DNA of 64,000 bases from Corallococcus exiguus (GTDB lineage Bacteria > Myxococcota > Myxococcia > Myxococcales > Myxococcaceae). The notes under the pieces are model-generated. The model saw only the letters and a list, made by a program, of their open reading frames with translations. It was not told where the DNA came from and made no database searches. Where the stretch lies: assembly GCF_009909105.1 (NCBI RefSeq), contig NZ_JAAAPK010000002.1, forward strand, positions 221,827-285,826, written 5' to 3'. Position 1 is the first letter of the stretch, and each line of letters opens with the position of its first letter. The translations under genes were made by a program, and so were the position numbers. Of this stretch, positions 4,044 through 53,187 are shown one piece after another.

Positions 4044-4153
4044 CGCGTCCCTCGGCCTGTTGCGGATCAGGACAACGGATCTACGGGGTTGTCCGAAATC
4101 AATCCAGCGGCACCTGTCCGAATGAAGGCGCTGTTGGCGTACCCTGGTTCCCT

Positions 4154-5149
4154 GTGAGCGCACCCCCACATACACACGGCAGGGCCGGGCACGGTCATTC
4201 GCACGACCACGACCATGACCACTCGCATCATGGGCATTCGCACGGCCATTCGCACGGTCCCCGCAAGGGCGGGCTGGCGGAGGAGCGGCGCAAGGACCGG
4301 CGGCGGCTGCTGTTCGCGCTGGGGCTGACGGCGACCATCATGGTGGCGGAGGCGGTGGGCGGCTTCCTCACCAACTCGCTGGCGCTGCTCTCCGACGCCG
4401 GGCACATGCTGACGGACGTGTCGGCCATGGTCCTGAGCCTGCTGGCGCTCTGGTTCGCCGGGCGGCCCGCGGACCTGAAGAAGACCTACGGCTACTACCG
4501 GATGGAGATTTTGAGCGCGCTCCTCAACGGGGTGCTGCTGCTGGTCATCACCATCTTCATCCTGATGGAGGCCTGGCAGCGCATGCGCACGCCCGCTCCG
4601 GTGGAGTTGGGGCCCATGGCGCTGGTGGCGGGCATCGGCCTGGTGGCGAACCTGGCGGCGCTGGGCTTCCTGCACCAGACGCACTCCATGAACGTGCGCG
4701 GTGCGTTCCTGCACGTGCTGGGGGACACGCTGTCGTCGGTGGGCGTGCTGATTGGCGCGGGCGTGATGTGGTGGACCGGCTGGTACGTGGTGGACCCCAT
4801 CATCTCCGTGCTGATTTCGATGATCATCGTCGTGGGCGCGCTGCGGCTGGTGAAGGACGCGGTGGACGTGCTCCTGGAGGCGGTGCCCGCGCACGTGGAC
4901 CTGGAGCAGGTGCGCGACCTCATGGGAAAGGTGCCGGGCGTGCAGGCGGTGCACGACCTGCACGTGTGGACCATCTCCAGCGGGATGTACGCGCTGTCCG
5001 CGCACCTGGTGGTGGCGGACCCCATGGTCTGCAACAACGACGACATCCTGTCCGCGGTGAAGCACGACCTCTTCGACCGCTTCGGCATCGACCACACGAC
5101 CATCCAGATTGAGAGCCAGTCCTACGCCCACCTGGGCGAAGTGCACTGA
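4154..5149 (+). CDS. cation diffusion facilitator (CDF) family metal efflux transporter, His-rich N-terminus
   Basis: N-terminal HGHSHDHDHDHSHHGHSHGHSHG tract, six predicted TM helices, conserved CDF motifs (LSDAGHML, HVLGDTLSSVGVL) and C-terminal cytoplasmic domain. GTG start. Confidence 0.85.
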   Translation: MSAPPHTHGRAGHGHSHDHDHDHSHHGHSHGHSHGPRKGGLAEERRKDRRRLLFALGLTATIMVAEAVGGFLTNSLALLSDAGHMLTDVSAMVLSLLALWFAGRPADLKKTYGYYRMEILSALLNGVLLLVITIFILMEAWQRMRTPAPVELGPMALVAGIGLVANLAALGFLHQTHSMNVRGAFLHVLGDTLSSVGVLIGAGVMWWTGWYVVDPIISVLISMIIVVGALRLVKDAVDVLLEAVPAHVDLEQVRDLMGKVPGVQAVHDLHVWTISSGMYALSAHLVVADPMVCNNDDILSAVKHDLFDRFGIDHTTIQIESQSYAHLGEVH

Positions 5150-5196
5150 CTCACGCTTGCGAAAGGCGCGCGGGGAGGGAATCCTCGCGGGCCTCT

Positions 5197-6240
5197 ATGA
5201 GCGTGCTGGACAAGGTGTTGTCGCTGCGGCCGGGCAACGTGGTGGCGCGGGTGGGCCCGGGCTCCCGGGTGCCCCTGTTGGATCCACGAGAGTTGCTTGC
5301 GGCGCTGGAATCCACGCCCATGGCGCTGCCGTGCCTGCCGGTGCTGTCCAAGGGCGCGCTGCCGGGCCTGTTGGGCGCGGCCCGCGCGGAGGACTCGGTG
5401 CTGGGCCTCTCCTGCCCGCACCCCCTGGCGGACCGGGGCGCGCCGGAGCGCTTCGTGAGGGCGGTGCACGCGGCGGCGCAGGAGGCCGAGCACACCCGGC
5501 CCCTGTTCCTCCAGGCCGGCCCACTCCGGGTGAGCTCCACGGACGCGGACGTGCTGGACGCGCTCCATGACGGCATCTTCCGCGTGGTGGACGCGGGCTT
5601 CGCGCTGGTGTCGCTGGACCTGTCGCGCCTCACCTCCTACGAGGCCGTGGAGGCGGTGAACGCGCTGGTGGGCCCGCTCAAGGAGCGCGAGCTGTCGCTG
5701 GAGGTGTCCCCGCCCCAGCTGTCTTCCGGCGGGCTGGTGGACGCGTGCGCGACGCTGCTGGAGGGGCTGGCGCAGTGGCAGGTCCCGCTGCGCTTCCTGC
5801 GCGTGTCGGACGCCCAGCTGGGAGAGGGCGAGCTGGACGTGGAGCTGCTGCGGCAGGTGGTGGAGACGGCCGCGGGGAAGGGCGTGTCGGTGTCGGTGGC
5901 GGAATCCTCCACGGGGCCCGCGCGGGGGCTGTCCAGCTACGTGGCCGTGGGTGTGCGCAAGGTGGACCAGGGAGGGCCCTTCGGTCCGCTGGCCCTGCGC
6001 GCCTGGCCTCCGGAGGTGCGCGAGGCGGTGGTGGCGCGGGCCCAGGCGGCGGGCATGCCGGCCGGGGAGCTGCTCTCCGTGCTGGAGGAGGGGCTGCCGC
6101 CCCTGACGCCCTCGGCCCGGGAGACGCTGGAGGCGCTGTCCTTCGCGGAGGCCACGGAGGCCCTGGTGGCGCTGGGGGCGCACCGGTCCGCTTCGGTGGC
6201 CATGGCGTTCCTCGCGAAGCCGGGCGGGGACCTGGGCTAG
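5197..6240 (+). CDS. hypothetical protein (Ala/Leu-rich, no recognised motif)
   Basis: 347-aa ORF in the correct intergenic position between the CDF gene and rsmD. No family recognised by eye. Confidence 0.45.
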   Translation: MSVLDKVLSLRPGNVVARVGPGSRVPLLDPRELLAALESTPMALPCLPVLSKGALPGLLGAARAEDSVLGLSCPHPLADRGAPERFVRAVHAAAQEAEHTRPLFLQAGPLRVSSTDADVLDALHDGIFRVVDAGFALVSLDLSRLTSYEAVEAVNALVGPLKERELSLEVSPPQLSSGGLVDACATLLEGLAQWQVPLRFLRVSDAQLGEGELDVELLRQVVETAAGKGVSVSVAESSTGPARGLSSYVAVGVRKVDQGGPFGPLALRAWPPEVREAVVARAQAAGMPAGELLSVLEEGLPPLTPSARETLEALSFAEATEALVALGAHRSASVAMAFLAKPGGDLG

Positions 6241-9880: not shown

Positions 9881-12800
9881 ATGCCCAAGCGTACCGATAT
9901 CCGGAAGGTTCTCGTGATTGGCTCGGGCCCGATTGTCATCGGGCAGGCCGTCGAGTTCGACTACTCAGGCACCCAGGCGATCAAGGCGCTTCGGGACGAG
10001 GGCGTGGAGGTGGTGCTGCTCAACAGCAACCCCGCCACGGTGATGACGGACCCAGAGTTCGCGCACCGCACCTACATTGAACCCATCACCGTGGAGGCGG
10101 CGGAGAAGATTCTCGCCGCCGAGCGCCCGGACTCGCTGCTGCCCACCATGGGCGGGCAGACGGCGCTGAACCTGGCCAAGGCGCTCGCGGAGAAGGGCAT
10201 CCTGGAGAAGTACGGGGTGCGGCTCATTGGCGCGTCCCTGGAGGCCATCAACAAGGCCGAGGACCGCCAGCTCTTCAAGGCGGCCATGCAGAAGATTGGC
10301 GTGGCGCTGCCCAAGAGCGGCTACGCGACGACGCTCACGGACGCCATGGCGCTGGTGGAGGAGATTGGCTTCCCGGCCATCATCCGTCCGTCCTTCACGC
10401 TGGGCGGCACGGGCGGCGGCATCGCGTACAACCGCGAGGAGTTCGAGGCCATCTGCCGCTCGGGCCTCAAGGCGAGCCCCAACTCCACCATCCTCGTGGA
10501 GGAGAGCGTGCTCGGCTGGAAGGAGTACGAGCTGGAGGTGGTCCGCGACTCCGCGGACAACGTCATCATCATCTGCTCCATCGAGAACCTGGATCCGATG
10601 GGCGTGCACACCGGTGACTCCATCACCGTGGCGCCGGCGCAGACGCTGACGGACCGCGAGTACCAGCGCATGCGGCAGGCGTCGCTGGCCATCATCCGCG
10701 AGATTGGCGTCGACACGGGTGGCTCCAACATCCAGTTCGGCATCCACCCGCGCGACGGCCGCATGGTCGTCATTGAAATGAACCCGCGCGTGTCGCGCTC
10801 CAGCGCGCTGGCGTCCAAGGCGACGGGCTACCCCATCGCGAAGATCGCCGCGAAGCTGGCGCTGGGCTACACGCTGGACGAGCTGCGCAACGACATCACC
10901 CGCGACACGCCGGCCTCCTTCGAGCCGACGCTGGACTACGTGGTGGTGAAGGTGCCGCGCTTCAACTTCGAGAAGTTCCCCAAGGCGGACCGCACGCTGA
11001 CCACGAGCATGCGCTCGGTGGGCGAGGTGATGGCCATTGGCCGCACCTTCCCCGAGGCGTACATGAAGGCGCTGCGCTCCATGGAGCTGGGGCGGGTGGG
11101 CCTGGAGTCGCCGGAGCTGCCCACGGAGAAGGAAGAGCGGGAGAAGGTGCTGCACGAGGGCCTGCGCGTGCCCCGTCCGGAGCGCCCGTGGTTCGTGGCG
11201 CAGGCCTTCCGCGAGGGCATGACGGTGGAGCAGGTGCACCAGCTCTCCGCCATCGACCCGTGGTTCCTGCGGCACATCGAGGCGCTGGTGCACGAGGCGC
11301 AGTCGCTGGCGGACATCGGTCGCCTGGATCACCTGGCGGACGACGTCTTGCGTCAGGCGAAGGCGCACGGCTTCTCCGACAAGTATCTGGGCAACCTGAT
11401 GGGCTACCCGGAAGCGGAGGTGCGGGCGCACCGGCACTCGCGCGGCATCCGTCCGGTGTTCAAGCGGGTGGACACCTGCGCCGCGGAGTTCGAGGCGTAC
11501 ACGCCCTACCTGTACTCCACCTACGAGGAGGAGGACGAGGCGCCCCCCACGGACCGGCAGAAGGTCCTGATTCTTGGCAGCGGTCCCATCCGCATCGGGC
11601 AGGGCATCGAGTTCGACTACGCGTGCGTGCACGCGGCCTTCGCGCTGCGCGAGGCCGGGTACGAGACGGTGATGGTCAACTGCAACCCGGAGACGGTGTC
11701 CACGGACTACGACACGTCCGACCGCCTCTACTTCGAGCCGCTGACGATTGAGGACGTGCTGGAGGTGTCCCAGCGTGAGAAGCCGGTGGGCGCCATCGTG
11801 CAGTTCGGCGGGCAGACGCCGCTGCGCCTGAGCGTGCCGCTGGAGCAGGCGGGGCTGCCGATCCTGGGCACGTCGCCGGACGCCATCGACCGGGCGGAGG
11901 ACCGCGAGAAGTTCTCCAAGCTGATTGAGAAGCTGGGCCTGAAGCAGCCGGAGAACGGCGTCGCGCGCAGCCACGCGGAGGCCTTCAAGGTGGCCGAGCG
12001 GATTGGCTATCCGGTGATGGTGCGTCCGTCGTACGTGCTGGGCGGGCGGGCGATGGAGACGGTCTACGACGCGTCCAGCCTGGAGCGCTACATGCGCGAG
12101 GCGGTGAGCGCGTCGCCGGAGCACCCGGTGCTGATCGATCGCTTCCTGAAGGACGCCATCGAAGTGGACCTGGACCTGGTGGCGGACCGCACGGGGCAGG
12201 TGCTGATTGGCGGCGTGCTGGAGCACATCCAGGAGGCGGGCGTGCACTCGGGTGACGCGGCGGCGACGCTGCCTCCGCACTCGCTGTCGCCGGACCTGGT
12301 GGAGCGGATGAAGGACCAGGCCATCTCCATGGCGCGCGAGCTGGGCGTGGTGGGCCTGATGAACGTGCAGTTCGCCATCCAGGGGAAGAACATCTACATC
12401 CTGGAAGTGAACCCGCGCGCGAGCCGCACGGTGCCGTTCATCTCCAAGGCGACGGGCGTCCCGATGGCGAAGATTGCCGCGCTCTGCATGGTGGGCAAGA
12501 CGCTGAAGGAGCTGGACCGCACGGAGGAGCCGGAGTTCCGGCACGTGGCGGTGAAGGAGAGCGTCTTCCCGTTCGCGCGCTTCGCCGGGGTGGACGTGAT
12601 CCTGGGCCCGGAGATGAAGTCCACGGGCGAGGTCATGGGCCTGGCGGAGGACTACGCGTCCGCGTTCGCGAAGAGCCAGCTGGCGGCGGGCGTGAAGCTG
12701 CCCAAGAGCGGCCGGGTGTTCATCTCCGTGAAGGACGAGGACAAGCCGGCGGTGGTGGACCTGGCGCGGCGTCTGCGGTCGATGGGCTTCACCCTGACGG

Positions 12801-13132
12801 CGACGGCGGGCACGCACGACTACCTGCTGACGAAGGGCATCGAGTCGCAGCGGGTGCAGAAGGTGAAGGAGGGCCGGCCGAACATCGTCGACAAGATCGT
12901 CGACGGGGAGATCGTCCTGGTCATCAACACCACCTTCGGCAAGCAGGAGATCTCCGACAGCTTCTCCATCCGCCGTGAGGCGCTGATGCACTCGGTGCCG
13001 TACTACACGACGGTGCAGGCGGCGCGCATGGCGGTGGGAGCGCTGGAGTCGCTGAAGCGCTCGGACCTCGCGGTGAAGCCGCTGCAGAGCTACCTGTACG
13101 GCGAGAACGGCGTGCCCCCGGCGCGCCGGTAG
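9881..13132 (+). CDS. carB: carbamoyl-phosphate synthase large subunit
   Basis: 1083 aa; [33 protein letters not shown]..., duplicated ATP-grasp halves, MGS-like C-terminal domain. The 1008-aa antisense ORF 9965-12991 is spurious. Confidence 0.95.
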
Positions 13133-13146
13133 TCCCGTGAAGACTC

Positions 13147-13180
13147 GCGGCCCCTGGGTGTTGGGGGGCCGCGTGTTTCA
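13147..13180 (+). terminator. candidate rho-independent terminator downstream of carB
   Basis: GCGGCCCC-tgggtgtt-GGGGGGCCGC hairpin followed by gtgtttcac, 15 nt after the carB stop. A 430-bp noncoding gap follows. Confidence 0.45.
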
Positions 13181-13563
13181 CTCGCGTCGCGACCCGGGGA
13201 AAGCACCCGCCTTGCGATGAGTCGCATGGCCTGGCTGTTTTCACGCATTTGAAGACATGCCCTGGAGGGCTCGGGCTGCCGGAGCACTCCCGCGCCAATG
13301 CCCTGCCGGACGCGCCCATGCTGGCCGAGGGCCGTTATCCCCGCTTCGCCACCGAGGGCGAGCTCACGGCGCACTGCTATGGGCAGGAGTCCGCCGCGGC
13401 CTGATGCTGGAATGGAGCGGGTTGTAGGTGCCTGGAAGCACATGGCCTCCTGTTCAATCCAGCTCCCTCCGTGGTATCCGCATACTTTTGCGCCCCGCGA
13501 GGCCGGGGGCTCGGTCTGCTCCCGAGACGTACGAGTGCTCCCACTGACACGAGGGGTCTTGTC

Positions 13564-14337
13564 ATGACGTCGGCATCTATTCTCCGCTGGCGGTCCCCCT
13601 CGTTCCTTCTCTTGATTCCCGCGGCGTTGTCGGTGTGCCTGCTGACCAGCTGCGAAAGCCCCCAGGACAAGGTTGTTCGTGGCTTGATGGAAACCAAGGC
13701 GTGCAACGGCTGTCAGTTGGTCGGGGTGCGACTGGAGGGGGCCGTTTTGCCAGGGGCTCAGCTCCGGGACGCCGCCCTGCGGGAAGCACAGCTTGCCCGG
13801 GCGAATCTGCGTGGCGCGGACCTGAGTGGCGCCTCCCTGGCTTCGACCGACCTGCGGCACGCCGAGTTGCAAGGCGCCCTCTTCGAAGGGGCCTATCTGA
13901 CGGGCACCCAATTCCAGGACGCCAATCTGGAAGGGGCGGACCTTCGTGCGGCACGCTCCCTGGAAAGCGCTGACTTCACAGGTGCGAATCTGCGGAAGGC
14001 TCAGCTTGCAGGCAGCAGGTTTTTTGGCCCAGCCGGTCCGTATCAGCGCACCGAGCGCTCCCACTTCTACTCTGTCCCCAGCGGTGGGGCGAGCTTGCCT
14101 CGGGCGGACCTGCGAGCCGCGGACTTGAAGAACGCGGTCCTCGCATCCTGCAACCTGCAAGGCGCCCAACTTCAGGGCGCCAGCTTGCGCGATGCTTCGC
14201 TGGAGGGCGCTGACCTTCGCGGAGCGAATCTCCAGGATGCGGACCTGCAAGGGGCCCAGCTTGAGCGTGCCATCTGGGTGGATGGCACCCGCTGTGGGCC
14301 TGGCTCTATTGGCCGCTGCACCCCCGAGAAACCATGA
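13564..14337 (+). CDS. pentapeptide-repeat lipoprotein
   Basis: Signal peptide plus lipobox (LLTSCES) from ATG 13564, then more than 20 tandem A(D/N)LxG pentapeptide repeats (ANLRGADLSGASLASTDLRHAELQGA...). ORF table start 13471 is probably too early. Confidence 0.7.
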   Translation: MTSASILRWRSPSFLLLIPAALSVCLLTSCESPQDKVVRGLMETKACNGCQLVGVRLEGAVLPGAQLRDAALREAQLARANLRGADLSGASLASTDLRHAELQGALFEGAYLTGTQFQDANLEGADLRAARSLESADFTGANLRKAQLAGSRFFGPAGPYQRTERSHFYSVPSGGASLPRADLRAADLKNAVLASCNLQGAQLQGASLRDASLEGADLRGANLQDADLQGAQLERAIWVDGTRCGPGSIGRCTPEKP

Positions 14338-14346
14338 CCGTCCGTC

Positions 14347-16200
14347 TCAGCGTCTCAGGCTGTTGATCTGCTCCTCGATGAGGGCGCGGACCTTGGGATA
14401 CAGCTCTTGTCGGCTGACGGAATGTGAAACCCGCATGAAGTAGGACAAGCCTCCGTAAGAAACGGGAGGCGTGAACTCCAGCTTGTTCGAAGCAAGGGGG
14501 TACGGTTCAGCAGGCTTATAGGGAACGTGCATGCCGCTCGCTTTGGGGAGCGCCTGCATGGACGGAGAAACTCTCAGGGTGACCTCCAATTGCCCGACGC
14601 TCCGCTCCTTGAGGATGCCAACATGGGTCTCGAGCACCGCGCACAGCTCCGCGAGGGCCGCGACCGCTGGAATGCTGATCATTCCGCTGGCCTCGCGGAA
14701 GAGTCTTCCCGGATCGGTTGGAAGCGCCATCAGATTGGTCGGCAGGTACTTGTTTGCTTTCAGCCAGACCACCAGCCAGTCAAGTGTGCGCCGGATCGTG
14801 GTGACGGTTTTCCCCTGTTCGGCGATCAGCGTGCTCACAGGGGCATGATTCGCAAGAAGGGTGAAGACGAGGTTCATCAAATCGGTTCGAGCGGCGGTAC
14901 TGGCGTACCTGGCTTCACACTTTTCCAGCCGGCCAACGAAGTTGTCGAAGTTGGCATCCAGATGGAACTGCGCGTACGCGTCCTCCTTGGTGATGTCGAC
15001 GTCGACGATCCGGTTCGCGAAGGGCGATTGCGCGTACTGGGCCTTGGGGGATGAAGTCGTGTTGTCGAATTTGTGGATCTGTTGCTCAAGGACCTGGGCA
15101 AGCAGGTCCCATAATGGGCCGCTCAGGGTCTTCGGATTGATTTGAAGGAGTTTGGAGATGGCTCTCAGGGGGCTTGAGACATTCAAGTCGTCGAAAAAGC
15201 CCATGAGCGGGTAGCGTCCGCTGGCCTTTCGGGCTTGGAACGCCTTGAGCGCTGGCGACAGACTGGTCTCGACTTTGTTCAGCTCGGCCTGAAGCCGATT
15301 GGCGAGATCGTTGCTGATGATCTGTCGATTCTTTGGGGCATCGCCCGTCATCTCGACTGGCACGTCGAAGGTGATGACGTTGTTGAGCGCGCAGATGACC
15401 TCGCGGGCCTTGGCAAGGGCGGTCTTGACGCTGTTGAGGGTGTTGATGCAGCTGTCGTAGAGCGCCTTCCCCTTGGCCGGATCCATCAACAACTTCAAGT
15501 CAATCCATAGGGAAGGGTCGGCATCCTTGAGTCTCGTGGACTTGACGGCGTCCTCAAACACACGGGTGTCGAACTTTATCTTCTTGAGCTGGGCGCCGAA
15601 GTCGTCGAATTCGGACCGCTTGAAGGCATCGTGAAAAGGGAGGAGTGAGAAGTCGGCAACGACCCTCTGGGTCAGGTCGTATTTGTTGTAGACGTTGATG
15701 ATCTTGCACTCCTTGTGGAGTGCCTTGGTGTTGACGTGGTGTTGCTTCGTGAAGAACGGTGTCGAGAGATAGGTGATGCTGCGGATCTTCCAGCGCTGGG
15801 GCCATGCGACGGCTGCCTGGGCCGTCAGCTCGTTGATGACATTCCCGCCATGTGAATGGCCGATGAGATGGAATGCGACTTCCTGGTTGAGGAAGCCCTT
15901 GTAGTAGGCGCTTTGTCCGTTGGCGCCACAGAGGCGGTTGGCCAGGTAGGTCCCCGCGATCGTACGGTTGGAGGAACCATTGTCCCCCGTCCATCCGTGA
16001 GCCGTGAAGATGTGGACATGGGTGTAACGCTTGTGGATTTCGTCGATGGTCTGCCGCAGGGCGGGGTTTTCCTGCCAGTACCAGTCTGGGTCGTTGATGC
16101 TCTTCTTGCGCTGATAACTCGCGGAGCGCGCCTTCAAGTCGCTGTTGACCGGGTCTACTGTTCCGCTCACCAAGACGATGATGTTGGGAATGTCGGACAT
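14347..16200 (-). CDS. alpha/beta hydrolase-like protein (putative lipase/esterase; GHSHGG nucleophile elbow) with long C-terminal helical domain
   Basis: Start at MSDIPNIIVLVSG (ATG 16200, GAGGAAAG upstream). HLIGHSHGGNVINEL is a GxSxG motif in a hydrolase-like N-terminal about 250 aa. Local GC is clearly lower than flanking DNA. Confidence 0.6.
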   Translation of the reverse strand: MSDIPNIIVLVSGTVDPVNSDLKARSASYQRKKSINDPDWYWQENPALRQTIDEIHKRYTHVHIFTAHGWTGDNGSSNRTIAGTYLANRLCGANGQSAYYKGFLNQEVAFHLIGHSHGGNVINELTAQAAVAWPQRWKIRSITYLSTPFFTKQHHVNTKALHKECKIINVYNKYDLTQRVVADFSLLPFHDAFKRSEFDDFGAQLKKIKFDTRVFEDAVKSTRLKDADPSLWIDLKLLMDPAKGKALYDSCINTLNSVKTALAKAREVICALNNVITFDVPVEMTGDAPKNRQIISNDLANRLQAELNKVETSLSPALKAFQARKASGRYPLMGFFDDLNVSSPLRAISKLLQINPKTLSGPLWDLLAQVLEQQIHKFDNTTSSPKAQYAQSPFANRIVDVDITKEDAYAQFHLDANFDNFVGRLEKCEARYASTAARTDLMNLVFTLLANHAPVSTLIAEQGKTVTTIRRTLDWLVVWLKANKYLPTNLMALPTDPGRLFREASGMISIPAVAALAELCAVLETHVGILKERSVGQLEVTLRVSPSMQALPKASGMHVPYKPAEPYPLASNKLEFTPPVSYGGLSYFMRVSHSVSRQELYPKVRALIEEQINSLRR

Positions 16201-16247
16201 GGCTTTCCTCGTGTCGTGAACTGGGAACAACAGGGCCAGGTCCGCGC

Positions 16248-17231
16248 TCACCACTCGCCGCTGGCGCCACCTCCGCCGGAGCGACCGCCCATTCCCTTGA
16301 ACGCGGTCTCCGTCAGCGGCTGGCTCTTCAACGCGGGGTGGAGATCCAGCAGGTACTGGACCCACTTCTTCGCGTTGAGCTCCCGCGGCGTTTCGAATTC
16401 CGCCTTCCGGCGATACACGCCCCGCCATTCAGGTTGGGTTGACCACAGAGAGGCACCGTCATCCGTGCCGTAGGTCTTGGGGTGGCCTACGTTCAGACGG
16501 AAGCCCTTGGCGTGGACGTAGTTCGCGAGCAGGTTGCTCCAGAGGGAGATGATGGTCTCGCGGATGTCGACGAAGATCCCGGGATCCACCTCCATGAGCT
16601 TGAACAGGAGCAGCGAGGAGCGCTCGACCGCCGAGGACTCCAGGTAGAAGACGGGGGTGGGGCCGCCACTGTAGGGCGTGAACTTGCCGCTCTCGACCTT
16701 GCCGACCTGGAGACTTCCTGCGTTCCATCCGGGCATCCCCGGCTGCAAGAGGCCGAAGACCCAGGACCGGCGGCCCGCGAGGAAGTGATACGCATTGTAT
16801 TGAATCAAGACGGAGAGCGCCGAAAGCGGCAGGATCGACAGGGGCTTCTCCAGACCCTCGGAGAAGTTGCGCTTGAGCGTCTGCGCGGCGAACCCCTTGT
16901 TGGGATCCTGCCAGAGGACGTGGACCCAATCGCTGTGGAAGTCAGGCAGGTTGATGCCCAGCGCCGCGAGCTTGACGTCGAGCAGGAAGCGAAGCGTCCG
17001 GGTTTGCTCGAACTGCCGGGTCGACCAGGCGACGCTCGCCTGGTTCTCCTGCATGTTCTTACCGAGCCCATTGAAGAACTTGGGAAAGTCCTTGGTGAAC
17101 TCCGCCACGAGCACCGGGAGTTGCTTCTGCGGATCGCCCTGGAGCCCAGGAACGCTGAAGTGGATCCGGAATTGATTCACATGGAAGTTGCCACTGCCCC
17201 TGGCGATCTTGAGCTCCGTAAAGTCCATCAC
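16248..17231 (-). CDS. hypothetical protein (no signal peptide), middle gene of low-GC cassette
   Basis: 327-aa ORF, 4-nt ATGA overlap with upstream lipase gene. No recognisable motif; C-terminal Gly-rich tail. Confidence 0.5.
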   Translation of the reverse strand: MMDFTELKIARGSGNFHVNQFRIHFSVPGLQGDPQKQLPVLVAEFTKDFPKFFNGLGKNMQENQASVAWSTRQFEQTRTLRFLLDVKLAALGINLPDFHSDWVHVLWQDPNKGFAAQTLKRNFSEGLEKPLSILPLSALSVLIQYNAYHFLAGRRSWVFGLLQPGMPGWNAGSLQVGKVESGKFTPYSGGPTPVFYLESSAVERSSLLLFKLMEVDPGIFVDIRETIISLWSNLLANYVHAKGFRLNVGHPKTYGTDDGASLWSTQPEWRGVYRRKAEFETPRELNAKKWVQYLLDLHPALKSQPLTETAFKGMGGRSGGGGASGEW

Positions 17232-18997
17232 CTACCTCCTGGTGAAGAGCGCTGTGCCGAGCTTCTTCCCAGGCTCCCCTGGTTGATGAGAGGGAGCCTC
17301 GTCGCCACGTAGGTGTTGTCGCGGTCCATGGTCAGCCGATCCGGCTGAAGCATCTTCACGTCGAACTTCGGAGGAGGAAGATGCAGCGACTTGATGGCAA
17401 GGCCTTGCAGTCCCCCCACTTCATCGAGTGCGACCTTCAGCGTCACAAGCGGAGGAAGGAGTGTGCGAGCGAGTTTGGGCAGGGGAGAGTCGTAAGACAT
17501 AACCTCTTTCATGAAGGATTTGACCGGAGCCCCCATGATCGCGTCGATCTGCTTCATCACCGACCGGTAGAGTCTCGGGATATTGAGCACCCCCAGGCGC
17601 TTCTTGCGCATCTCCTCGACGATGGGGCTGTGGATGTTGTCGCTGGACTGGCCGGATGACTGGGGGCCTACCGTGAGCCGGGTGCGTTTGGTGGTCCCGT
17701 TGGGGCCCAGCAATCGCTGGCTGTGGAGAGCCCCAAGCGCCGCTCCCACGCTCTTGGCGGCCTGGGCGTTCCCTCCGGCATATGCGATTGCCACCGCGGC
17801 GAGCAGTTGCTTGATGTTGGAGGTCCTCATCACCGCTGGGAACAGCTCCTTCTTGACGACGATCATGAAGAGGATGCCCAGCACGTCGGTGAGGAGATCA
17901 TCCACCTTGTGCAGAGAGCCATTCTTGAGAAGCCTCCGCAGCTCCGCCGTGGCGGCTCCCTCCAGGATGGTGGCGTTGCCTGCAAGCAACGTCTCGCCTG
18001 CGAGTGAGACGACATCTCCCTGGGTGAGATAATGAGTCGCCAGCGGGCCCTTGGGGGCCTTGAGGCGGTTCGCGGTCTTTCTATCGACGCCGGGTGAGTT
18101 GAAGGTCACCACCTGGAGAACCGAGTCCCCGAAATCGACCGCCACCCGCTGCGCCATGGCGCCACCCAGGCTGTGTCCGACGACAACGACGTCCTTCCTG
18201 CCAATGCGCGTCAGCAGTGTCTGGAAGAGCGCGCGGGTCTGCTTGAAGGCAGTTGCGCCAACCCCCGCGGGGTCCATGTCCGCGACGGCATCAGGTGCCT
18301 TCTCGAACTCGGTGCCGCGGACCGCGATGATGGGATGGTTTCCACGGGATGGCTGCAGCCAGTAGGCGAACACGCCATGGGTCTTGTTATGGGGGTCGCT
18401 GCCCTCCATCTGGACAATGGTGTAGTACAGGGGCTGTATGCCCGGCTTCTTGGAGTAGGGGCGTTTGGTTGAGACGGCATAGGTCGCCGGGAACTTCAGC
18501 TCGGGCATTGCCCAGAGCTCCGGCGTTTCAGCGCGATACAGGAACCTGTCGACCTGGATGCCAGCCTGTGCGCCGCCGCCCTGGTTGTTCAGATAGGCGA
18601 AGTCGTGAGCCAGGTACTCGTAGAACTCGTGGTCGGGCGTGAAGTCCTCGGCCCATGGCTCGGGTGGCGCCTTGGGCATGACGATGGGCCGCGTGGCAAC
18701 CCGGGTGTTGTCCTGGAGGATGTGCTGGGTCTGGAGACGCAGTGCGTTCAGATCAATGTGAAGCGCATTGGAAGGCGACGCGTGTGTCTTTGCCGCTCCC
18801 GAGCCGGACGCCACCGCCAACACGTTGGACTCCGGGATGTAGACCTTGTCACCTGGTTTGATGTGGTCAGGATCGGGCCGTGTCTTCCGGAGCGCGGCGT
18901 TTCGTGGGTCTTTGTAGACGACGCGCCAGTCCGCGATCCGGTAGGACGCGGCGATGCTGTACAGCGACTCTCCGGCCTTGACGACATGCTGGGTCAT
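17228..18997 (-). CDS. LysM-domain protein fused to class-3 lipase-like alpha/beta hydrolase
   Basis: N-terminus VKAGESLYSIAASYRIADWRVVYKDPRNAAL...IKPGDKVYIP is a LysM fold signature. VVVGHSLGGAMAQRVAVDFG matches the Lipase_3 GHSLGG motif. Start overlaps stop of the giant upstream gene (ATGA). Confidence 0.65.
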   Translation of the reverse strand: MTQHVVKAGESLYSIAASYRIADWRVVYKDPRNAALRKTRPDPDHIKPGDKVYIPESNVLAVASGSGAAKTHASPSNALHIDLNALRLQTQHILQDNTRVATRPIVMPKAPPEPWAEDFTPDHEFYEYLAHDFAYLNNQGGGAQAGIQVDRFLYRAETPELWAMPELKFPATYAVSTKRPYSKKPGIQPLYYTIVQMEGSDPHNKTHGVFAYWLQPSRGNHPIIAVRGTEFEKAPDAVADMDPAGVGATAFKQTRALFQTLLTRIGRKDVVVVGHSLGGAMAQRVAVDFGDSVLQVVTFNSPGVDRKTANRLKAPKGPLATHYLTQGDVVSLAGETLLAGNATILEGAATAELRRLLKNGSLHKVDDLLTDVLGILFMIVVKKELFPAVMRTSNIKQLLAAVAIAYAGGNAQAAKSVGAALGALHSQRLLGPNGTTKRTRLTVGPQSSGQSSDNIHSPIVEEMRKKRLGVLNIPRLYRSVMKQIDAIMGAPVKSFMKEVMSYDSPLPKLARTLLPPLVTLKVALDEVGGLQGLAIKSLHLPPPKFDVKMLQPDRLTMDRDNTYVATRLPLINQGSLGRSSAQRSSPGGR

Positions 18998-21900
18998 GAC
19001 ACCCGCTCCTGCTGGGACTGAGCCCGCCGTCCCTGGCGCGCCAGCCCCAGGCCCAGCAGGAGCAACAGGGCCAGCGCCGCGCCCCCATCCCCGCTGGTTC
19101 CACAGGCGCAGCCGCCGCCCGTGCCTCCCAGGGTCCTGGCCTGTGCCTTCAGTGTGAGCGAGGCCTCCGTCGTCGTCTCTCCTCGCAGGCGCAGCTTCAG
19201 CGTTCCCTCCGCGGGGCCTCCCACCTCTCCGTGGAAGGTGACGCTCACCGTCGTCTGGGCTCCCGGCGCCAGCTCCGCGTCCAGGGCGCTCGCGTCGATC
19301 ACGAACGCCGGGTTGGTGTTCTCCACCACGCTCAACCTCGCCGGCGACGCGGACTGGTTCGTGAGCGTCACCGTGCGCGCCGTGCTGGTGGCGCCAATGT
19401 CCACCCAGCCCAGATCCAACTCCATGGGCTCGATGGTCAGGAAGCTGGCCACCGAGATGCCCGACAGGGCCACCAGCGCCGCGCGCTCCTGGTCCTTCGT
19501 GCCCAGCACCAGCGTCGCCTTCGACGCGCCAATCACTGACGTGTCGTACTTCAGATCCAGCGTCAGCGAGTCACCCTGCGGTAGCGCGCGGCCCTCCGCG
19601 CCCAGGACGGGAGACACCACCACGAAGTTCGTGGCCTGGGGTCCCTCCACCTTGGGAGGCATCACCACCAACTCCTGGGTGGTGTCATTGGTGAGCACCA
19701 CCTTCGTCGTCGCCGGCTCCGCCTGGCGCACGGTGCCGAAGTCCACCGTGCGATTGAGCGCCCGGAACACCGTGGAGAGCCCCCGGCCCGACAGCGACAC
19801 CTGCGCCTCCGGCGACTCCAGGTCGTTCGTCACCACCAGGAGGTTGGCCTTGGACGTGACGTCCGGACGGGGGACGTACTTGACGAAGACGTCCTTCGAT
19901 TCCTGGGCTGCCAGCGTGAAGGGGAGCGTGGGCGCCGAATCCAGGCTGAAGTGCGAGGGCTCGGAGTTCTCCGAAGCGGCGATGATCTCCAGCCCCCGCA
20001 CCACCAACGGCTGGAGGGACTCGTTGGTGAGCTTCACGAAGCGGATCGCCGAGGCGGAAGACTCGGCCACCCGGGCGCCAAACTCGAGCGTGGGAGTGGA
20101 CAGGCTGAGCTGGCTCGTCCGGCCCTGGCCCCCCAGCTTCACGAGCATGGTGCTCGCCTGGCTGTCTTCGGAGGTGATGCGCAGGTCCGCGTTGAAGCGC
20201 CGCTGGGCGTCAGGACGGAACTGGATCGACACATCCAGGCTTCCTCCCGGGGTCAGCGCCAGGGGCAGCGTTGGCTTCTGCAGGATGAACACTCTCGCAT
20301 CCTCCGCCTCCAGCGAGATCTCCTTCACGGTGAGCGTGTTGGCTTCCGAGCCGCTCCCGGCGTCCGGGGACCCAGCTGGCGCAACATGCGTCAGCCTCAG
20401 TCCAATGCCTTCCGAGGTCGCGTTCACCCGGGTTCCTCCAAAGTCCAGAGAACCGTCGAAGGTCTGGCCGTCACGGCGCGCCACCGCGAGCCTTGCCAGC
20501 GTGGCCGTTCCCTGAAGGGTGAGCTCCAGCGGAAGCTGGGAGGACGCCTCCACCCGCACCGTGGCCTTGGCCGTCCGGAGTCCGCCCGTCGACCCCTGCG
20601 GAGTGAAACGGAGTTTCACCGTGGCACTGCCATTCGCGGGCACCTTGGGCAGCGTCTCCTGCACGGAGAACTCCGAGTTCCCCGCGGGGATCGTCACGGA
20701 AATGTTCGCGTCGGTGATACCGGTGTTGTTCACCGTCACCGTCTTTTCCAGGGACGAGCCGAAGTTCACGCGCCCGAAGTCGATGGTAGAGGGCGACAGA
20801 CTCACGCCACCCACTCCATCCACGATCAGCTTCACGACGGTGGACGACGGATCCGCGTTGCTGGAGATGACCAGGTTGCGCTCGATCTTGAGGAGCTGGG
20901 TGGGCTTCGCGGTGACGTAGAAGGCATGCGCGGCGCCGGGCTCCACCGTGAAGGCGGGCACGACGGGACTCAGGGTGGAGGGGCAAACCGCGGTCTTCTG
21001 CGTGTCCACGCGCAGGCAGAATTGATCCGGAACGGACACGGAGTAGATCACCAGCGGGGCCTTGCCTTCGTTCTTCACCACCACCGGCTGGGGATCCCCT
21101 TCGACCGTGATGGCTTGAGGCGCGAATTCAGGTGTGCCACCGGGCAGTGCCAACACGGGGATGGTGCCCCGGCCCGAGACCGTGATGGTCTGGTCCGTGC
21201 TTTCGTTCGAATTGCTCAGCACGTGCACGGCGCCAGTCACTTCCAGCGCGGACTCGGGACGGAAGGTGACATCGAGCTGAAGGGGCACATTTCGCTCAAT
21301 GGTGACGGGGAACTGCTGGTTGTTCTGCAGCCTGGCTGTGAAGGGACCGCTCCCCGTCGCATTGGTGATGGTGAGGGGGGCGGAGCCGATGTTCGTCAAG
21401 GTGACGGTCTGGGTGCTGGAGGACAGCCGAGGGATGTCATTGAAGACAAGCTGATTCTTGTTCATCTGCAGTTGCGCGACCGCGGCGACGCCGGACAGCT
21501 TGACGATCAGCCTGGCCGTGGCCGGTGCCTTCGCGGCGAGCTCAAGGTCGCCGAAGTAGTTGCCCGGGCGCTGGGGGACGAACGTGATTTCGATCTTGCG
21601 AGTGCCATTCACCGGGATGGTGGAATTGGATCCACCAATCAGATCGATGTTGAAGGTTCCAACGCTGGTGGCCACCTCCGCCAGGTCAACCTCCACCAGC
21701 CCTGTGTTGATGATGTCCACGGGCAGCATGAGCGAGCCTCCTGGCTGCGTGGCGGGGAAGACCACGGCAGCCAATGACGTGGAGAACTTGGCCTCCGCGC
21801 CAGTCCCCTGCAGTGGGAAGCTGCGCTTCGTCTCGATATTGCTGAGAGTCCCCCGGTAGGTGATCTCCAGGCTGGCTTCGTACTCCTGGTCCTCGATGTT

Positions 21901-24852: not shown

Positions 24853-25365
24853 TCAGTTCTCGGCGTGGAGGGCCGGGGCCTTGGCGGTGGAGGAGGGTGG
24901 GGGCTTCGGGGCGGCGGGCGGTTCGGGCGGCTTCGCCGCGTCGTCGCCTTCCTTGGGGGCCGCAGGCTGGGTGCCCGTGCGGATGCGGCCTTCCAGCAGT
25001 TCGATTTCCAGGGAGCCGGGCGCGGGCGTGTTCACGAACTGCTGCCAGGTCCCGTCCGGGGCGGTGAAGAGGAACGACACCGCCACCGGCGTGTTGTCCG
25101 GCAGCGGCACCTTCATGCGCTGCAACCTGCCCGGATAGATGACCTCCGAGAGCAGCACGTCCGCGTCCGGCTGGAAGATGCGCGCGGACACCTCACCGTA
25201 GGACTCCACGGCGAACTGCTTCGGATCGACCTTGCGCACCAGCATGTACATCGGCCGGCCCTGGTTCGTCCCTGAGGGGGCCTTCACGCTCAGGTGCAGC
25301 GTGCTCGGCTGACACGCGGCCAGGAAACACAACGCCAGGGGGATGCAGCCTGCCCACGGTTTCAT
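24853..25365 (-). CDS. tssJ: TssJ-like type VI secretion outer-membrane lipoprotein
   Basis: 170 aa, lipoprotein signal (LALCFLAAC). Size and position immediately downstream of tssM with 4-nt overlap. Beta-rich body followed by a Pro/Ala-rich tail. Assigned by context and size more than motif. Confidence 0.5.
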   Translation of the reverse strand: MKPWAGCIPLALCFLAACQPSTLHLSVKAPSGTNQGRPMYMLVRKVDPKQFAVESYGEVSARIFQPDADVLLSEVIYPGRLQRMKVPLPDNTPVAVSFLFTAPDGTWQQFVNTPAPGSLEIELLEGRIRTGTQPAAPKEGDDAAKPPEPPAAPKPPPSSTAKAPALHAEN

Positions 25366-28300
25366 CGCGGCACCTCGCGGAACGGGATCCAGGGCTCACC
25401 CTTGAGCCCGACGCGCAGCTCCATCACCCCGTCCGGGGGCGTGGCGGCTCGCGCTCTCAACGACCACTTGCGGTGCTGCGGGTCTTCCGTGGCCTGGGAT
25501 GACTCCAGCAGCCGGAAGCAGCTCCACGCCGAACGCGACTTCTCCAGCGACGCGTACTGCACCGCCTGCTCCGTGGGCGCACGCAACTCCAGCATCAGCG
25601 ACGCCGTCTGCTGGTCCCACCACGCCAGCGGGAACTCCTGCCACGACGGACTCTGGTTGTACGCGAGGAACGTCGTCTTGCCGCACTTGAGCGAACCCAG
25701 CGTCACGAAGCTGCCCGGTACGGGCGCCTTCGGCAGCGGCAGCGGCATCACCTGCAACATCAGCGGCCGGGGCCTGCCCTCCGCGTCCCACAGCACGCGG
25801 GCCAGCCGCGACAGCTTCCCCAAGGAGGGCAACATCCCCTGCGGGAACGCCAGCCGCGACTGGAGCGCGCTTCGCGGTACCCACTCCGAGCCTCGCTCCT
25901 CGCACACCGGTGTCAGCACCCGAGTCACGAAGTCCCAGAAGGCTCCGTCGAGCCGGCGCAGCACCTCCAGGTCTTCCTGCGCCACCTCCTGCGACGCGTC
26001 CGGCGTGAACGGATAGTGCTTCAGCAGCGGACGCAGGAACCGGCCCGAGGCCTCGTCCCACTGCCGCTCCAGGGTTCGTTCAATCTCCCGCTGGCCCAGC
26101 TCGCGCACCGCGAGGAACGGCTGGCGGAAGGGCTGCCGCAGCTCTCCGATGAGCCCCTGCTGGTCCAGCCACGCGTCCACCTTGCGCAGGTAGGACGTGT
26201 CGTCCTCCATCATCATCGCGAAGGCCAGCCTCCCCAGCGGCGTGAGCAGCTCCTGGAGCTTCGCGGCCCCGCCGGCCGGCTGAGCGCTGCCAGTGGCCAG
26301 GCCTCCCGTGAGCGACGCTGTCGCCTCCGCGGGCACCATGCCCGGACGGGGCACCGCGTTCAGCTCGTCCGACATCTGGGCCACCAGCGCCCGGTAGGGG
26401 TTGAGCGCCGTGTAGTTGCCCGTCTCGTCCGGCTTCATCACCGTGGCGATGGGCTTGAAGGGCGCCACCGCGTTGCGCAGGGATTCGTAGAAGGGCCCCT
26501 CCAACGGCTCCAGCGCCACGCTCTGGGCGACGTCGCGCAGCATGTCCACCAGGTCCGAGGACGGCTGCGTGAGACGCGACAGCTCCTCCGCCAGGAGCGC
26601 GGGAATCACCGCCTGGAAGCGGTAGCCGCCCACGCGCTGGAACAGGCGGTTGCGGTACTGGACCGCGAACTGGTTCACCTTGCGGCGCACGTGCTCGTGG
26701 CGCTGCAACACCTCCTCCACCGGCAGCCCCGAACCCTTGATGCGCGTGGTGAACTCATCCACCAGCGGGCGCAACCGCGTGTCGAATTCCAGCCGGTCCG
26801 ATGCCAGGCTCGCGCCGCTCCGCGCCGCCACCGCCTCCTCGCCCTCCACCACGCCAAAGGGCATGCGCCCCGTCTTCTCGTGGTAGCGCAAGAGCGCCTG
26901 GTGCAGGAGCCGCGAGCTGTCCTTGGGCCGGAACTCGAAGGTGCTCTGGAGCACCGGGACCTGGAGCACCGAGGGGCCGTTGCCCGGCAGCCACAGGCCG
27001 TCGCGCACCAGCAGCTCCGCCACGTTCATCTTCTGAACCGCCTTCACGCCCAGGAAGGCCTCTTCCTCCATGCGCAGCACGTTCGTCAGCACTTCGCGGT
27101 GGTCGTTGATCCACGCCACCGTCCTGATGGTGGAGGGGATGCCCCGGAAGCGGCTGGTGTCCACTCGCGCCTCGGAGGCGGCCAGGAGCTCCAGCGCGCG
27201 CGGCAGACTGCTAAAGCGCGCGCTGTCATCCAGCAGCGTCTGGAGCCTCCGTCGCTCGTCCTGCATGGACTCCAGCTCCGCGTCCAGCTGCTCCAGCGCG
27301 CGCGGCTCCACGGCCCGGTTCGCCAGCAGGTCCTGCAACCGCCGCAGGTGCGCCTGCCACGGCATCAACTGGGACTCCTGCGTGAGCGGCTCCGGGTAGG
27401 GCCAGCGCGCCCAGCTGGCTTCGGGCGTGTCCGGCGCGGACCACGGCGGATTGCTCATGACGACGTAGTCGGCCACCAGGGAGTCGTTCAGCCCCACCGC
27501 CGTCACCCACGAGCGCCCTCCCTCCAACGCCGCCGCGTCCGCGGCAGGCTCCGCCGAGCCGTCCTCCGACACGAAGCCCCAGTTCGGACGCGTCTTCAGG
27601 CTGGACAGCACCAGTTGGCCCAGCGGCTCCTCGCGCGAACCGTGCAACGCGGCCAGCAGGTAGACGACCTGCTCCGGACGGCACGTGTCCGGCTGGCGGT
27701 GGCACTTCTCCAGGGCGGGCCGGATGTGGGCCTCGCGGATGCCTCGCGCCAGGCGTTGGCGCAGGTCCTCTCGCGCGTCGGTGAAGCTGTAGCGCAACAG
27801 CGGCCACGTGTTCATGGCCCGCCACAACGAGTCCAGAGAGTGGCCCGCGGCGACCACCGGTTCCTGCACCGCGGCCCCGGACACCTCCTGCCCCTGGTCG
27901 CGGATGCGCTGGACCATCTCCTCGAAGCGCTGCACGCGTGTGCGCGCCTGGCCCAGCCTCCACGCGAAGTGCCCGTACACGGCCAGGAGCGGCAGCGCGC
28001 ACGCCAGCCCCAGCAGCACCGCCCGGCGCAGGTGGATGTGCAGGTAGCGCTCGTGGACCGCTTTCGCCGTGCTGGCCTCGGCGGACACCGAGAGGACGTC
28101 AGGGTCCCTCGTGTCCTTGTCCGCGGACGACAGCGACACCGTGGCGAGCCGGGGCGCATACGCCAGCGTCTGGCCCTCCATCAGCGCCGTCACGAAGCGC
28201 GACAGCGCCTCGAAAGGGGCGTGGCCCTCCGAATAGAAGTGCTCCAGCCGTTCGAAGGACTCCACCGGAAGCGACGTGAGACCCAGCGCCAGGTAGTGCT

Positions 28301-30016: not shown

Positions 30017-30027
30017 CGCGCCCCCCG

Positions 30028-30606: not shown

Positions 30607-30633
30607 GCGCGCCGTTCCCCCGTCGGTCCGCCG

Positions 30634-49769: not shown

Positions 49770-49785
49770 AACCAGGAGGATGAAC

Positions 49786-52670: not shown

Positions 52671-52694
52671 CGTCCCCATTCGAGGAGTGAAGCC

Positions 52695-53186: not shown

Positions 53187-53187
53187 C

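Follow-up and report, generated by a model that had tools for sequence, protein, structure and literature searches.

The 3' end of a type VI secretion system (T6SS) operon in the myxobacterium Corallococcus exiguus is a variable cargo bay that holds two independent gene modules. We analyzed a 64,000-nucleotide stretch of contig NZ_JAAAPK010000002.1 (hereafter, the window), in which the operon is followed by gene 1, encoding a LysM-tagged lipase-like protein, gene 2, encoding a protein of predicted START-like fold, and gene 3, encoding a second lipase-like hydrolase. An initial annotation had treated the three as one cassette. The stretch from 13.4 to 19.0 kb instead comprises gene 1 plus gene 2 (module A) and gene 3 plus a convergent gene for a pentapeptide-repeat lipoprotein (module B), and the two modules are distributed independently of each other. 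That this is the cargo bay of a Francisella-like T6SS, and that both modules are effector modules, is the explanation we consider probable.

Two modules at the end of the operon

We compared the window with genomes that carry the same operon and found that the gene content 3' of the giant gene, which forms the upstream edge of the bay, differs each time (Table 2). Breakpoints in blastn alignments are clean and delimit both modules (Table 1). Module A is 89.7% identical to its counterpart in Corallococcus sp. M7 and is absent from C. coralloides KYC2213. Module B is 78.8% identical to KYC2213, against 92% for the flanking T6SS core, and its gene pair recurs in Corallococcus, Myxococcus, and Archangium. 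Consecutive NCBI accessions reveal the same three-gene order in at least five genomes of the C. exiguus clade, and the closest relatives of the products of genes 1-3 are C. exiguus proteins (95-97% identity). The census of relatives is small: a genome scan for IglE returned seven loci, of which five are draft contigs broken inside the repetitive giant gene. Because presence or absence differs among Corallococcus genomes, genes 1-3 are accessory and position-specific, which agrees with their earlier description as accessory cargo at the 3' end of the operon rather than core genes.

Module A is flanked by a 24-nt direct repeat (D4), whose copies are identical at 21 of 24 positions and spaced 2835 nt apart. 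The repeat coincides with the blastn breakpoints and was aligned with the KYC2213 and M7 junctions. Such a duplicate is the footprint expected if module A had been inserted into a KYC2213-like order, in which gene 3 directly follows the giant gene. Horizontal acquisition, as initially proposed, is plausible from the composition (see below), the patchy distribution, and this flanking duplication. The flanks contain neither genes for mobility functions nor tRNA genes, and the 24-nt duplicate is the sole boundary repeat.

In a window of ~70% GC, genes 1, 2, and 3 have a GC content of 62.4%, 62.6%, and 57.8%, respectively, as compared with 69.6 ± 3.8% for 33 other genes of the window, and a GC content at third codon positions (GC3) of 0.79, 0.86, and 0.78, as compared with 0.913 ± 0.042. 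Sliding a 500-bp frame over positions 14500-19000 gives GC values of 0.57-0.63. Across the window, GC3 is lowest in the convergent pentapeptide gene (0.716, z = -4.6; range across the low-GC genes, -1.3 to -4.6), with an intermediate value for the giant gene (0.859). The drop in GC reported at first is thus present, but its level is ~58-63% and not 55-60%, and it does not span exactly three genes, since the low-GC3 tract includes the fourth, convergent gene.

The three co-directional minus-strand open reading frames (ORFs) lie where they had been placed, as do, upstream of them, a TssM-like gene, an IglE_N-type tssJ, and the giant gene for an Ig-repeat MYXO-CTERM protein. The coupling by ATGA overlaps that had been described for the series exists between the giant gene and gene 1, but genes 1 and 2 overlap by 1 nt (TGATG) and genes 2 and 3 are separated by a 47-nt spacer, which contains a ribosome-binding site (GAGGAAAG) ahead of ATG 16200. 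This ATG is the real start of gene 3, not position 16428 (a 693-aa ORF). For gene 2, the likely start is ATG 17228, which has AGGAGG 6 nt before it and is backed by homologs. A promoter and terminator scan of the region gave background levels only.

In M7, gene 3 and the pentapeptide gene are replaced (positions 12758-16389 of the M7 contig) by genes for a 361-aa product whose N-terminus gives a weak SH3-like match, a DUF3304 lipoprotein, and a 635-aa Tle1/DUF2235 protein; M7 thus encodes Tle1 and a DUF3304 partner where a T6SS operon of IglE type ends. Variation extends to the side of the island that faces carB. In the window, only ~430 bp (13132-13564) lie between carB and the likely start of the pentapeptide gene (ATG 13564), whereas M7 and KYC2213 both have a gene for a rhomboid protein there (TPR_16 match in M7), and M7 encodes a 178-aa protein as well.

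Table 1. Coordinates of the cargo bay, the T6SS genes, and a second tail-like cluster in the window
Feature	Position (nt)	Strand	Description
Module B	13414-16211		Gene 3 and pentapeptide gene; blastn breakpoints
Pentapeptide-repeat lipoprotein, 257 aa	13564-14337	plus	Convergent to gene 3; Pentapeptide match 7.7e-45; lipobox LLTSC
Lipobox Cys30	13651-13653	plus	
Gene 3, 617 aa	14347-16200	minus	Effector candidate, undescribed alpha/beta-hydrolase family
Gene 3 hydrolase domain	15481-16200	minus	N-terminal, ~residues 1-240
Gene 3 nucleophile Ser116	15853-15855	minus	In HSHGGN
24-nt repeat, downstream copy	16224-16247		Directly 3' of gene 2 stop; downstream limit of module A
Module A	16246-19013		Gene 1 and gene 2; blastn breakpoints
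Gene 2, 326 aa	16248-17228	minus	Predicted cytoplasmic; predicted START/SRPBCC-like helix-grip fold; motif HFLAGRRSW
Gene 1, 589 aa	17228-18997	minus	LysM-like and Lipase_3/Phospholipase-like alpha/beta-hydrolase
Gene 1 hydrolase domain	17903-18640	minus	~Residues 120-365
Gene 1 nucleophile Ser276	18170-18172	minus	In GHSLGG
Gene 1 LysM-like domain	18830-18997	minus	Residues 1 to ~56
Giant lipoprotein, 1949 aa	18994-24843	minus	Choice-of-anchor-D/HYDIN-type Ig repeats; MYXO-CTERM sorting signal
24-nt repeat, upstream copy	19059-19082		Within MYXO-CTERM-coding end of giant gene
IglE-type TssJ lipoprotein	24853-25365	minus	PF22361 IglE_N 8e-31; NF041245 T6SS_IglE 1.6e-9
TssM/IcmF-like membrane-complex gene	25362-29063	minus	IcmF_helical, IcmF_C; C-terminal TIGR03348 match
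Short VgrG, 192 aa	30028-30606	minus	Matches NF041249 T6SS_TssI_Fran and DUF2345
tssK	30634-31887	minus	Part of T6SS operon
tssB, tssC, tssF	32113-41367	plus	
Second contractile-injection/phage-tail-like cluster	47811-63146	plus	eCIS-like
Sheath	49693-52107	plus	Second cluster
gp19 tube	52695-53186	plus	Second cluster
CIS_tube	54147-55019	plus	Second cluster
LysM/tail-X	55030-55308	plus	Second cluster
GPD hub	55221-56495	plus	Second cluster
Baseplate_J	56383-60633	plus	Second cluster

Table 2. Genes found at the end of the operon (identity to the window in brackets)
Genome or contig	Content
Window	Gene 1, gene 2, gene 3, convergent pentapeptide gene
Corallococcus sp. M7 (L001)	Gene 1 (89%), gene 2 (86%), 361-aa protein (weak SH3-like N-terminal match), DUF3304 lipoprotein, Tle1/DUF2235, further genes, carB
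C. coralloides KYC2213	Gene 3 (71%) and convergent pentapeptide gene (83%, tblastn) only
Metagenome-assembled genome PMG_225	Gene 2 (68%), LysM-glycine-zipper protein, 215-aa ORF
Corallococcus sp. bb12-1	Gene 2, PG_binding_1 protein with weak GH19 match, carB
Metagenome contig L069	Gene 2, gene 2 paralog, PG_binding_1 protein with weak AHH nuclease match
Contig L010 (more distant, no giant gene)	Gene 2 adjoining TssM, IglE, and a VgrG-like gene; then polysaccharide deacetylase with weak SPOR match

Gene 3 and its lipoprotein partner

Gene 3 encodes a protein without a signal peptide, in which the N-terminal hydrolase domain is joined to a long helical C-terminal region. Its family has more than 442 full-length homologs in Myxococcota, Cyanobacteria, Gammaproteobacteria, Campylobacterota, and Bacteroidota, and is invariant at H115-S116-H117-G-G-N, at D175, and, in the helical region, at H593 and S596. 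No Pfam model describes the family and no Pfam match is significant; weak matches are to LCAT (12 of 33 members), PGAP1, and Abhydrolase. The GHSHGG motif for which gene 3 had been called a second alpha/beta-hydrolase is present, the alpha/beta-hydrolase matches being sub-threshold only, and a PDB search found no sequence match with either the single sequence or the profile.

Members of the family are linked to secretion loci well beyond Corallococcus, where they stand at the end of the T6SS operon (window and KYC2213). A homolog directly follows vgrG in Aliarcobacter faecis, with a gene for a signal-peptide leucine-rich repeat (LRR) protein downstream; another directly follows tssD (hcp) on a Bernardetia plasmid; and at least one member has an N-terminal CIS_spike_tip fusion (5.9e-7). 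Location in T6SS, vgrG, and hcp loci of independent lineages is what is generally expected of T6SS cargo.

The convergent lipoprotein gene is the conserved partner of gene 3. In four of four myxobacterial contexts (window, C. coralloides, M. virescens, and Archangium gephyra), gene 3 or its homolog has a lipobox-bearing ortholog of this protein as its convergent neighbor, which corrects the initial statement that no signal-peptide-bearing immunity protein is evident. The two proteins co-diverge: identities of the lipoprotein and the gene 3 product are 86% (mature alignment) and 71% in C. coralloides, 50% and 41% in M. virescens, and 52% and 42% in A. gephyra. All four lipoproteins share CxGC and C..GS.G.C caps and a loop, GPxGPYxRxER..Y.VPxGGA. 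The conserved cysteine caps probably form disulfides, which would place the protein outside the cytoplasm. In Aliarcobacter, the exported partner is the LRR protein mentioned above and not a pentapeptide lipoprotein. A hydrolase without a signal peptide next to an exported repeat protein is sensible if the hydrolase is injected into the periplasm, following the logic of Tle lipase effectors and their Tli immunity proteins, and a conserved adjacent partner in the predicted compartment of the toxin is the arrangement of effector-immunity pairs. By this analogy, we suggest that the pentapeptide lipoprotein is probably a periplasmic immunity protein for gene 3.

Pentapeptide-repeat proteins are also known from other T6SS-associated loci. 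TagAB/TagB of Pantoea ananatis are encoded in vgrG islands and are predicted to have neither a signal sequence nor a transmembrane helix (PMC3942780), and the title of a report on Burkholderia glumae names DUF2169 and a pentapeptide-repeat protein together as T6SS accessory proteins (PMC8747328). We rejected TagAB/TagB as an identity for the protein described here: a lipobox cysteine and conserved cysteine pairs are present in four of four orthologs and, unlike TagAB/TagB, it is a lipoprotein encoded convergent to, and co-diverging with, a single effector family. No PAAR or DUF2169 match was found among the window proteins scanned.

In M. virescens (contig L015, 3054-9821), genes for an EAD1-Trypsin_2 protein, a 796-aa protein without matches, and a stand-alone LysM plus PG_binding_1 protein precede the gene 3 homolog; the locus is possibly either an orphan island of effectors or a set of cargo genes for a different system.

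A LysM-tagged lipase-like protein and its putative START-like companion

Gene 1 was described at first as a LysM-Lipase_3 fusion with a GHSLGG motif, and this description holds. Its Pfam LysM match covers residues 4-21 (1.6e-4, above cutoff), with alignment extending the domain to about residue 56, and Lipase_3 (PF01764; 2.9e-6, 27.7 bits, cutoff 22) and Abhydrolase_6 match around GHSLGG; the C-terminal ~220 aa are uncharacterized. R227-G228, S276, D328, and a downstream histidine are conserved. Precomputed Pfam data label the orthologs PF26363 ('Phospholipase-like'). A PDB sequence search returned weak generic lipase matches only (E ≥ 0.04). NCBIfam gave nothing informative for genes 1-3, for which the NCBI labels go no further than 'alpha/beta fold hydrolase', 'hypothetical', or 'lipase family protein'. 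We rejected the idea that gene 1 and gene 3 are paralogs (hhalign probability 5%, nucleophile elbow only).

Full-length homologs of gene 1 occur in Corallococcus only. Elsewhere, its catalytic module is fused to eCIS_core/DUF4157 (P0005) or, in cyanobacteria, to RTX repeats; lying behind varied delivery domains, it behaves as a shuffled toxin module. The LysM region (residues 1-103) shares 37% identity with a 'peptidoglycan-binding protein' whose gene stands alone directly after vgrG on Thiodictyon plasmid pTs485, and it closely resembles the N-terminus of the stand-alone LysM plus PG_binding_1 protein of M. virescens. LysM-toxin fusions are also found in locus L007 and protein P0216. A published survey counts LysM and PG_binding_1 among six domains that vgrG loci encode either by themselves or as N-terminal fusions to toxins, and in that work a LysM protein was shown experimentally to bridge VgrG and its effector (PMC10673891). 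Because of the homolog after vgrG and this published bridging, we read the LysM of gene 1 as a putative loading domain. Like the published domains, it is N-terminal on a toxin and has a stand-alone homolog in a vgrG locus, and sister loci carry PG_binding_1-toxin fusions. The published loci contain canonical T6SS-i vgrG, and their LysM correlates mainly with peptidoglycan hydrolase toxins (PMC10673891), whereas the present locus combines an IglE/IglB-type system and a 192-aa VgrG with a lipase toxin and an accompanying START-like gene 2.

How do the two hydrolases relate to known lipase effectors? Both have features of T6SS lipase effectors, as had been proposed, but they are not placed in the Tle1, Tle3, or Tle4 families. 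First, for Tle1, PF09994 (DUF2235) matches neither protein, and the gene 3 profile aligns with the M7 Tle1 at an hhalign probability of 2% (nucleophile elbow only). Second, for Tle3, no DUF3274 appears in any Pfam output for gene 1 or gene 3. Third, for Tle4, PGAP1 stays below threshold (gene 1, 18.9 bits against 24.3; gene 3 family, 3 of 33 members at E ≥ 0.01). There are no PLD matches as in Tle5, both proteins being GxSxG serine hydrolases of the alpha/beta-hydrolase fold. Gene 1 resembles Tle2 at the level of class, that is, it has a Lipase_3 class domain with GxSxG, as has Vibrio cholerae TseL; no periplasmic Tli gene adjoins it. What the window shares with Tle/Tli systems are signal-less alpha/beta-hydrolases with a GxSxG elbow in T6SS or vgrG/hcp loci, an exported lipoprotein beside gene 3, and, in the equivalent slot of M7, a true Tle1/DUF2235 with its DUF3304 lipoprotein. 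It differs in that the immunity candidate of gene 3 is a pentapeptide-repeat beta-helix lipoprotein and that gene 3 lacks DUF2235 profile similarity, a significant Pfam match, and a PDB sequence match.

Generic NCBI annotations, and the many gene 3 homologs that lie far from any T6SS gene, would also suit ordinary lipases or esterases that by chance follow a T6SS operon and have no role in secretion. We consider this extremely unlikely. Gene 1 is translationally coupled to the operon and neither hydrolase has a signal peptide; presence/absence polymorphism is limited to this exact position, and elsewhere the region is replaced by recognized effectors (Tle1, AHH, and GH19-like proteins). The independent linkage of the gene 3 family to vgrG, hcp, and a contractile injection system (CIS) spike tip in three other phyla, and the LysM loading-domain homolog directly after vgrG, also argue against chance.

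Gene 2, the other member of module A, had been called motif-less, and its ~326-aa product indeed has no Pfam or NCBIfam match; it has no signal peptide either. Its family counts 231 representatives at 50% clustering, has no Pfam model, and is conserved from residue 2, with no recognizable N-terminal delivery domain; H99, D101, T118, H149, G153, R155, and W231 are invariant or nearly so. Structure prediction tentatively suggests a START/SRPBCC-like helix-grip fold. Close orthologs keep their place in IglE-type loci while the adjoining cargo varies (a lipase, a glycine-zipper protein, an AHH nuclease, a GH19-like enzyme, or a deacetylase). Every such cargo neighbor has a domain of peptidoglycan-binding (PG-binding) type, either LysM, PG_binding_1, or a weak SPOR/SH3 match. 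Among the seven informative loci, gene 2 accompanies PG-binding-type cargo in all six that have it, and KYC2213, the sole locus without gene 2, is without such cargo. In addition, P0216, a family member, consists of LysM fused to the gene 2 domain, and other members are fused to hemopexin or an S8 peptidase. A constant gene 2 beside changing toxins suggests an accessory or co-effector rather than a lipase-specific immunity protein. From this pattern, gene 2 is most likely an adaptor-like accessory or a co-secreted partner of LysM/PG_binding-tagged cargo.

A classical effector-immunity pair, in which the gene 1 lipase would be countered by gene 2 as an immunity protein of unusual kind, cytoplasmic or associated with the membrane, has the gene order on its side: gene 2 is immediately downstream of gene 1 and translationally coupled to it, and the two are inherited together in M7 and at least five genomes of the C. 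exiguus clade, as in the window. The predicted START-like lipid-binding fold could conceivably sequester a lipid product or block the lipase, and one UniRef homolog is labeled DUF3396, a T6SS immunity family (PMC9635880). However, the 63-68% orthologs stand beside glycine-zipper, AHH nuclease, GH19-like, and deacetylase cargo without any gene 1, and the residues of gene 2 are more conserved than is usual for immunity proteins. To our knowledge, the Tli proteins of characterized Tle lipases are periplasmic, whereas gene 2 has no signal peptide. The DUF3396 (PF11876) label was not reproduced, as none of 16 close members (E ≤ 5) or 40 diverse members (E ≤ 0.01) match it in Pfam. We therefore regard immunity as a very unlikely role for gene 2.

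Could gene 2 itself be the toxin? Under this reading, gene 2 would be a conserved effector or enzyme that such T6SSs secrete as their invariable first cargo, the changing toxins beside it being unrelated cargo. Its invariant polar residues suggest catalysis or ligand binding, its family is wider than T6SS loci, and in P0216 its domain occupies the C-terminal 'toxin' position behind LysM, with the hemopexin and S8 peptidase fusions pointing the same way. Yet no immunity candidate adjoins it, conservation from residue 2 leaves no recognizable delivery domain, and strict co-occurrence with PG-binding-type cargo (six of six loci) better fits a helper. An effector role is unlikely, and we prefer the accessory role for gene 2.

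Like the T6SS adaptors DUF4123 (Tap/Tec), DUF1795 (Eag), and DUF2169, gene 2 is small, conserved, and cytoplasmic, and the N-terminal type of its cargo is constant while the toxin varies. Unlike them, it is predicted to be SRPBCC/START-like, has many remote homologs outside secretion loci, which keep enzyme-like invariant residues; identity with any of the three was rejected for want of a Pfam or NCBIfam match. A tblastn search of gene 2 against plasmids found nothing, and a metagenome scan for the family returned 48 loci in mostly short or unrelated contexts, which neither confirms nor excludes a wider T6SS link. On three metagenome contigs (L064-L066, ~842-5224), remote homologs of 363 aa directly follow a 1093-aa protein, near ORFs that look phage-tail-collar (MdpB-like) by eye only, and on L057 and L058 a gene 2 homolog adjoins a TssC fragment. 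These contigs hint at other links of the wider family to tail-like systems.

A Francisella-like apparatus and its probable cargo

The T6SS cluster (29067-41367, both strands) is Francisella-like (IglE/IglB-type), as judged from its IglE-type TssJ, its short VgrG, and its IglB-like sheath. The minus-strand operon runs tssK, short vgrG, tssM-like, tssJ, giant gene, gene 1, gene 2, gene 3. Among solved structures, TssC is nearest to Francisella novicida IglB (3J9O; 1e-125, 423 bits), as compared with ~360 bits for VipB/TssC. The system thus resembles the T6SS-ii of the Francisella pathogenicity island in its TssJ, very short VgrG, and sheath. It differs in its soil myxobacterial host, in the giant MYXO-CTERM surface protein of its operon, and in having antibacterial-type effector-immunity modules, where T6SS-ii has Pdp and Opi host effectors.

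In the mechanism we propose, the LysM of gene 1, possibly with gene 2, would dock the lipase onto the small VgrG, and gene 3 would be loaded as cargo and injected into neighboring cells. We infer that both enzymes would then hydrolyze membrane lipids in the periplasm of the recipient. In the producer and its kin, export would bring the pentapeptide lipoprotein to the periplasm, where it would neutralize gene 3. Self-protection against gene 1 might be unneeded, or might be provided by gene 2 or by an unlinked gene.

Several observations weigh against parts of this explanation. First, neither the window nor M7 has a dedicated periplasmic immunity gene for gene 1; the interval between genes 1 and 3 holds only gene 2, and ORFs in alternative frames between 14.3 and 19.0 kb all have shadow-frame composition (GC at second codon positions > 0.6), with no hidden immunity ORF among them. 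Second, between-strain similarity of module A (89.7%) is on a par with that of the T6SS core (~91%), and module A could be old in the lineage and lost elsewhere rather than recently acquired. Third, remote gene 2 homologs (25-34% identity) lie mostly among housekeeping genes, and the invariant polar residues (H99, D101, T118, H149, and R155) would suit an enzyme, or a pocket for a ligand, better than they would a chaperone. Fourth, orphan gene 3 homologs with no T6SS gene within 8 kb occur in Oceanospirillum, M. virescens, and Archangium, and Vibrio quintilis has only a distant hcp. Finally, pentapeptide proteins also serve as cytoplasmic T6SS accessory proteins, namely TagAB/TagB (PMC3942780).

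The hydrolases might also be directed at eukaryotes (amoebae, fungi, or nematodes), in which case gene 1 would need no immunity and the pentapeptide lipoprotein would serve as an accessory. The apparatus is nearest to the Francisella type, which targets host cells (PMC5924787). Gene 1 indeed lacks a dedicated immunity gene, the weak LCAT and PGAP1 matches of the gene 3 family are to eukaryote-type lipid enzymes, and pentapeptide proteins are known as T6SS accessory proteins and as type III and type IV secretion system effectors. However, exported repeat proteins (lipobox pentapeptide or signal-peptide LRR) consistently follow gene 3 homologs, and other loci carry PG_binding-GH19-like and AHH nuclease cargo, the targets of which are bacterial. 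In the M7 bay, Tle1/DUF2235 adjoins a DUF3304 lipoprotein, the usual antibacterial effector-immunity arrangement. Eukaryotic targets are thus distinctly unlikely.

A broader proposal can be put forward only tentatively, namely that soil myxobacteria possess an antibacterial Francisella-type T6SS, in which cargo loading would follow a logic of its own: gene 2 would be a new adaptor class that recognizes LysM/PG_binding-tagged cargo on behalf of a minimal VgrG, and the pentapeptide-repeat beta-helix lipoprotein a new structural class of lipase immunity against the phylum-spanning, hitherto unrecognized gene 3 family. The effector-module logic of Tle type is already known, and the LysM tag of gene 1 matches a described loading-domain class. 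What appears new is the link of a lipase family, that of gene 3, to the T6SS, the pentapeptide lipoprotein as an immunity candidate, and the START-like gene 2 as a putative companion of PG-binding-tagged cargo, all in a myxobacterial IglE/IglB-type T6SS. In the searchable literature, the coverage of which is incomplete, we found nothing on these elements, no paper on pentapeptide lipoproteins as Tli proteins, and no report of an IglE-type T6SS in Myxococcota. T6SS-ii has been regarded as peculiar to Francisella and aimed at the host (PMC5924787); an IglE/IglB-type apparatus with swappable antibacterial-style modules would offer a tractable soil model for cargo loading in minimal-VgrG systems. 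The gene 3 family, large, spread over several phyla, and linked to vgrG, hcp, and CIS spike tips, would be a new lipase effector class if confirmed, and neutralization of gene 3 by the pentapeptide lipoprotein, if true, would be a new role, open to testing, for pentapeptide-repeat proteins of the periplasm. The recognition of LysM- and PG_binding-tagged cargo could be explained by gene 2. For annotation, genes 1-3 are at present only 'alpha/beta hydrolase' or 'hypothetical'.

The giant lipoprotein has ~15 choice-of-anchor-D/HYDIN-type Ig domains and varies in length from 1670 to 2420 aa among loci. Its gene always follows IglE in Corallococcus-type loci (L001 (M7), L003, L007, L069, and L070), and draft assemblies usually break within it. 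It diverges faster than the T6SS core (73-86% versus 91-92% nucleotide identity), and the protein shows 58-74% amino-acid identity as compared with 90-95% for the TssM-like protein across other Corallococcus genomes. Possibly, it serves the T6SS as a factor for recognition or contact at the surface.

Five ORFs of the cluster have no Pfam match (34358-35005, 35068-35805, 35708-36709, 36582-37667, and 38065-39696). A homolog of the last, 654 aa long and encoded on contig L010, has an N-terminus that looks VgrG-like by eye, but no Pfam match. About 20 kb from the T6SS lies the second contractile-injection/phage-tail-like cluster (Table 1); its LysM and that of gene 1 share no more than distant similarity.

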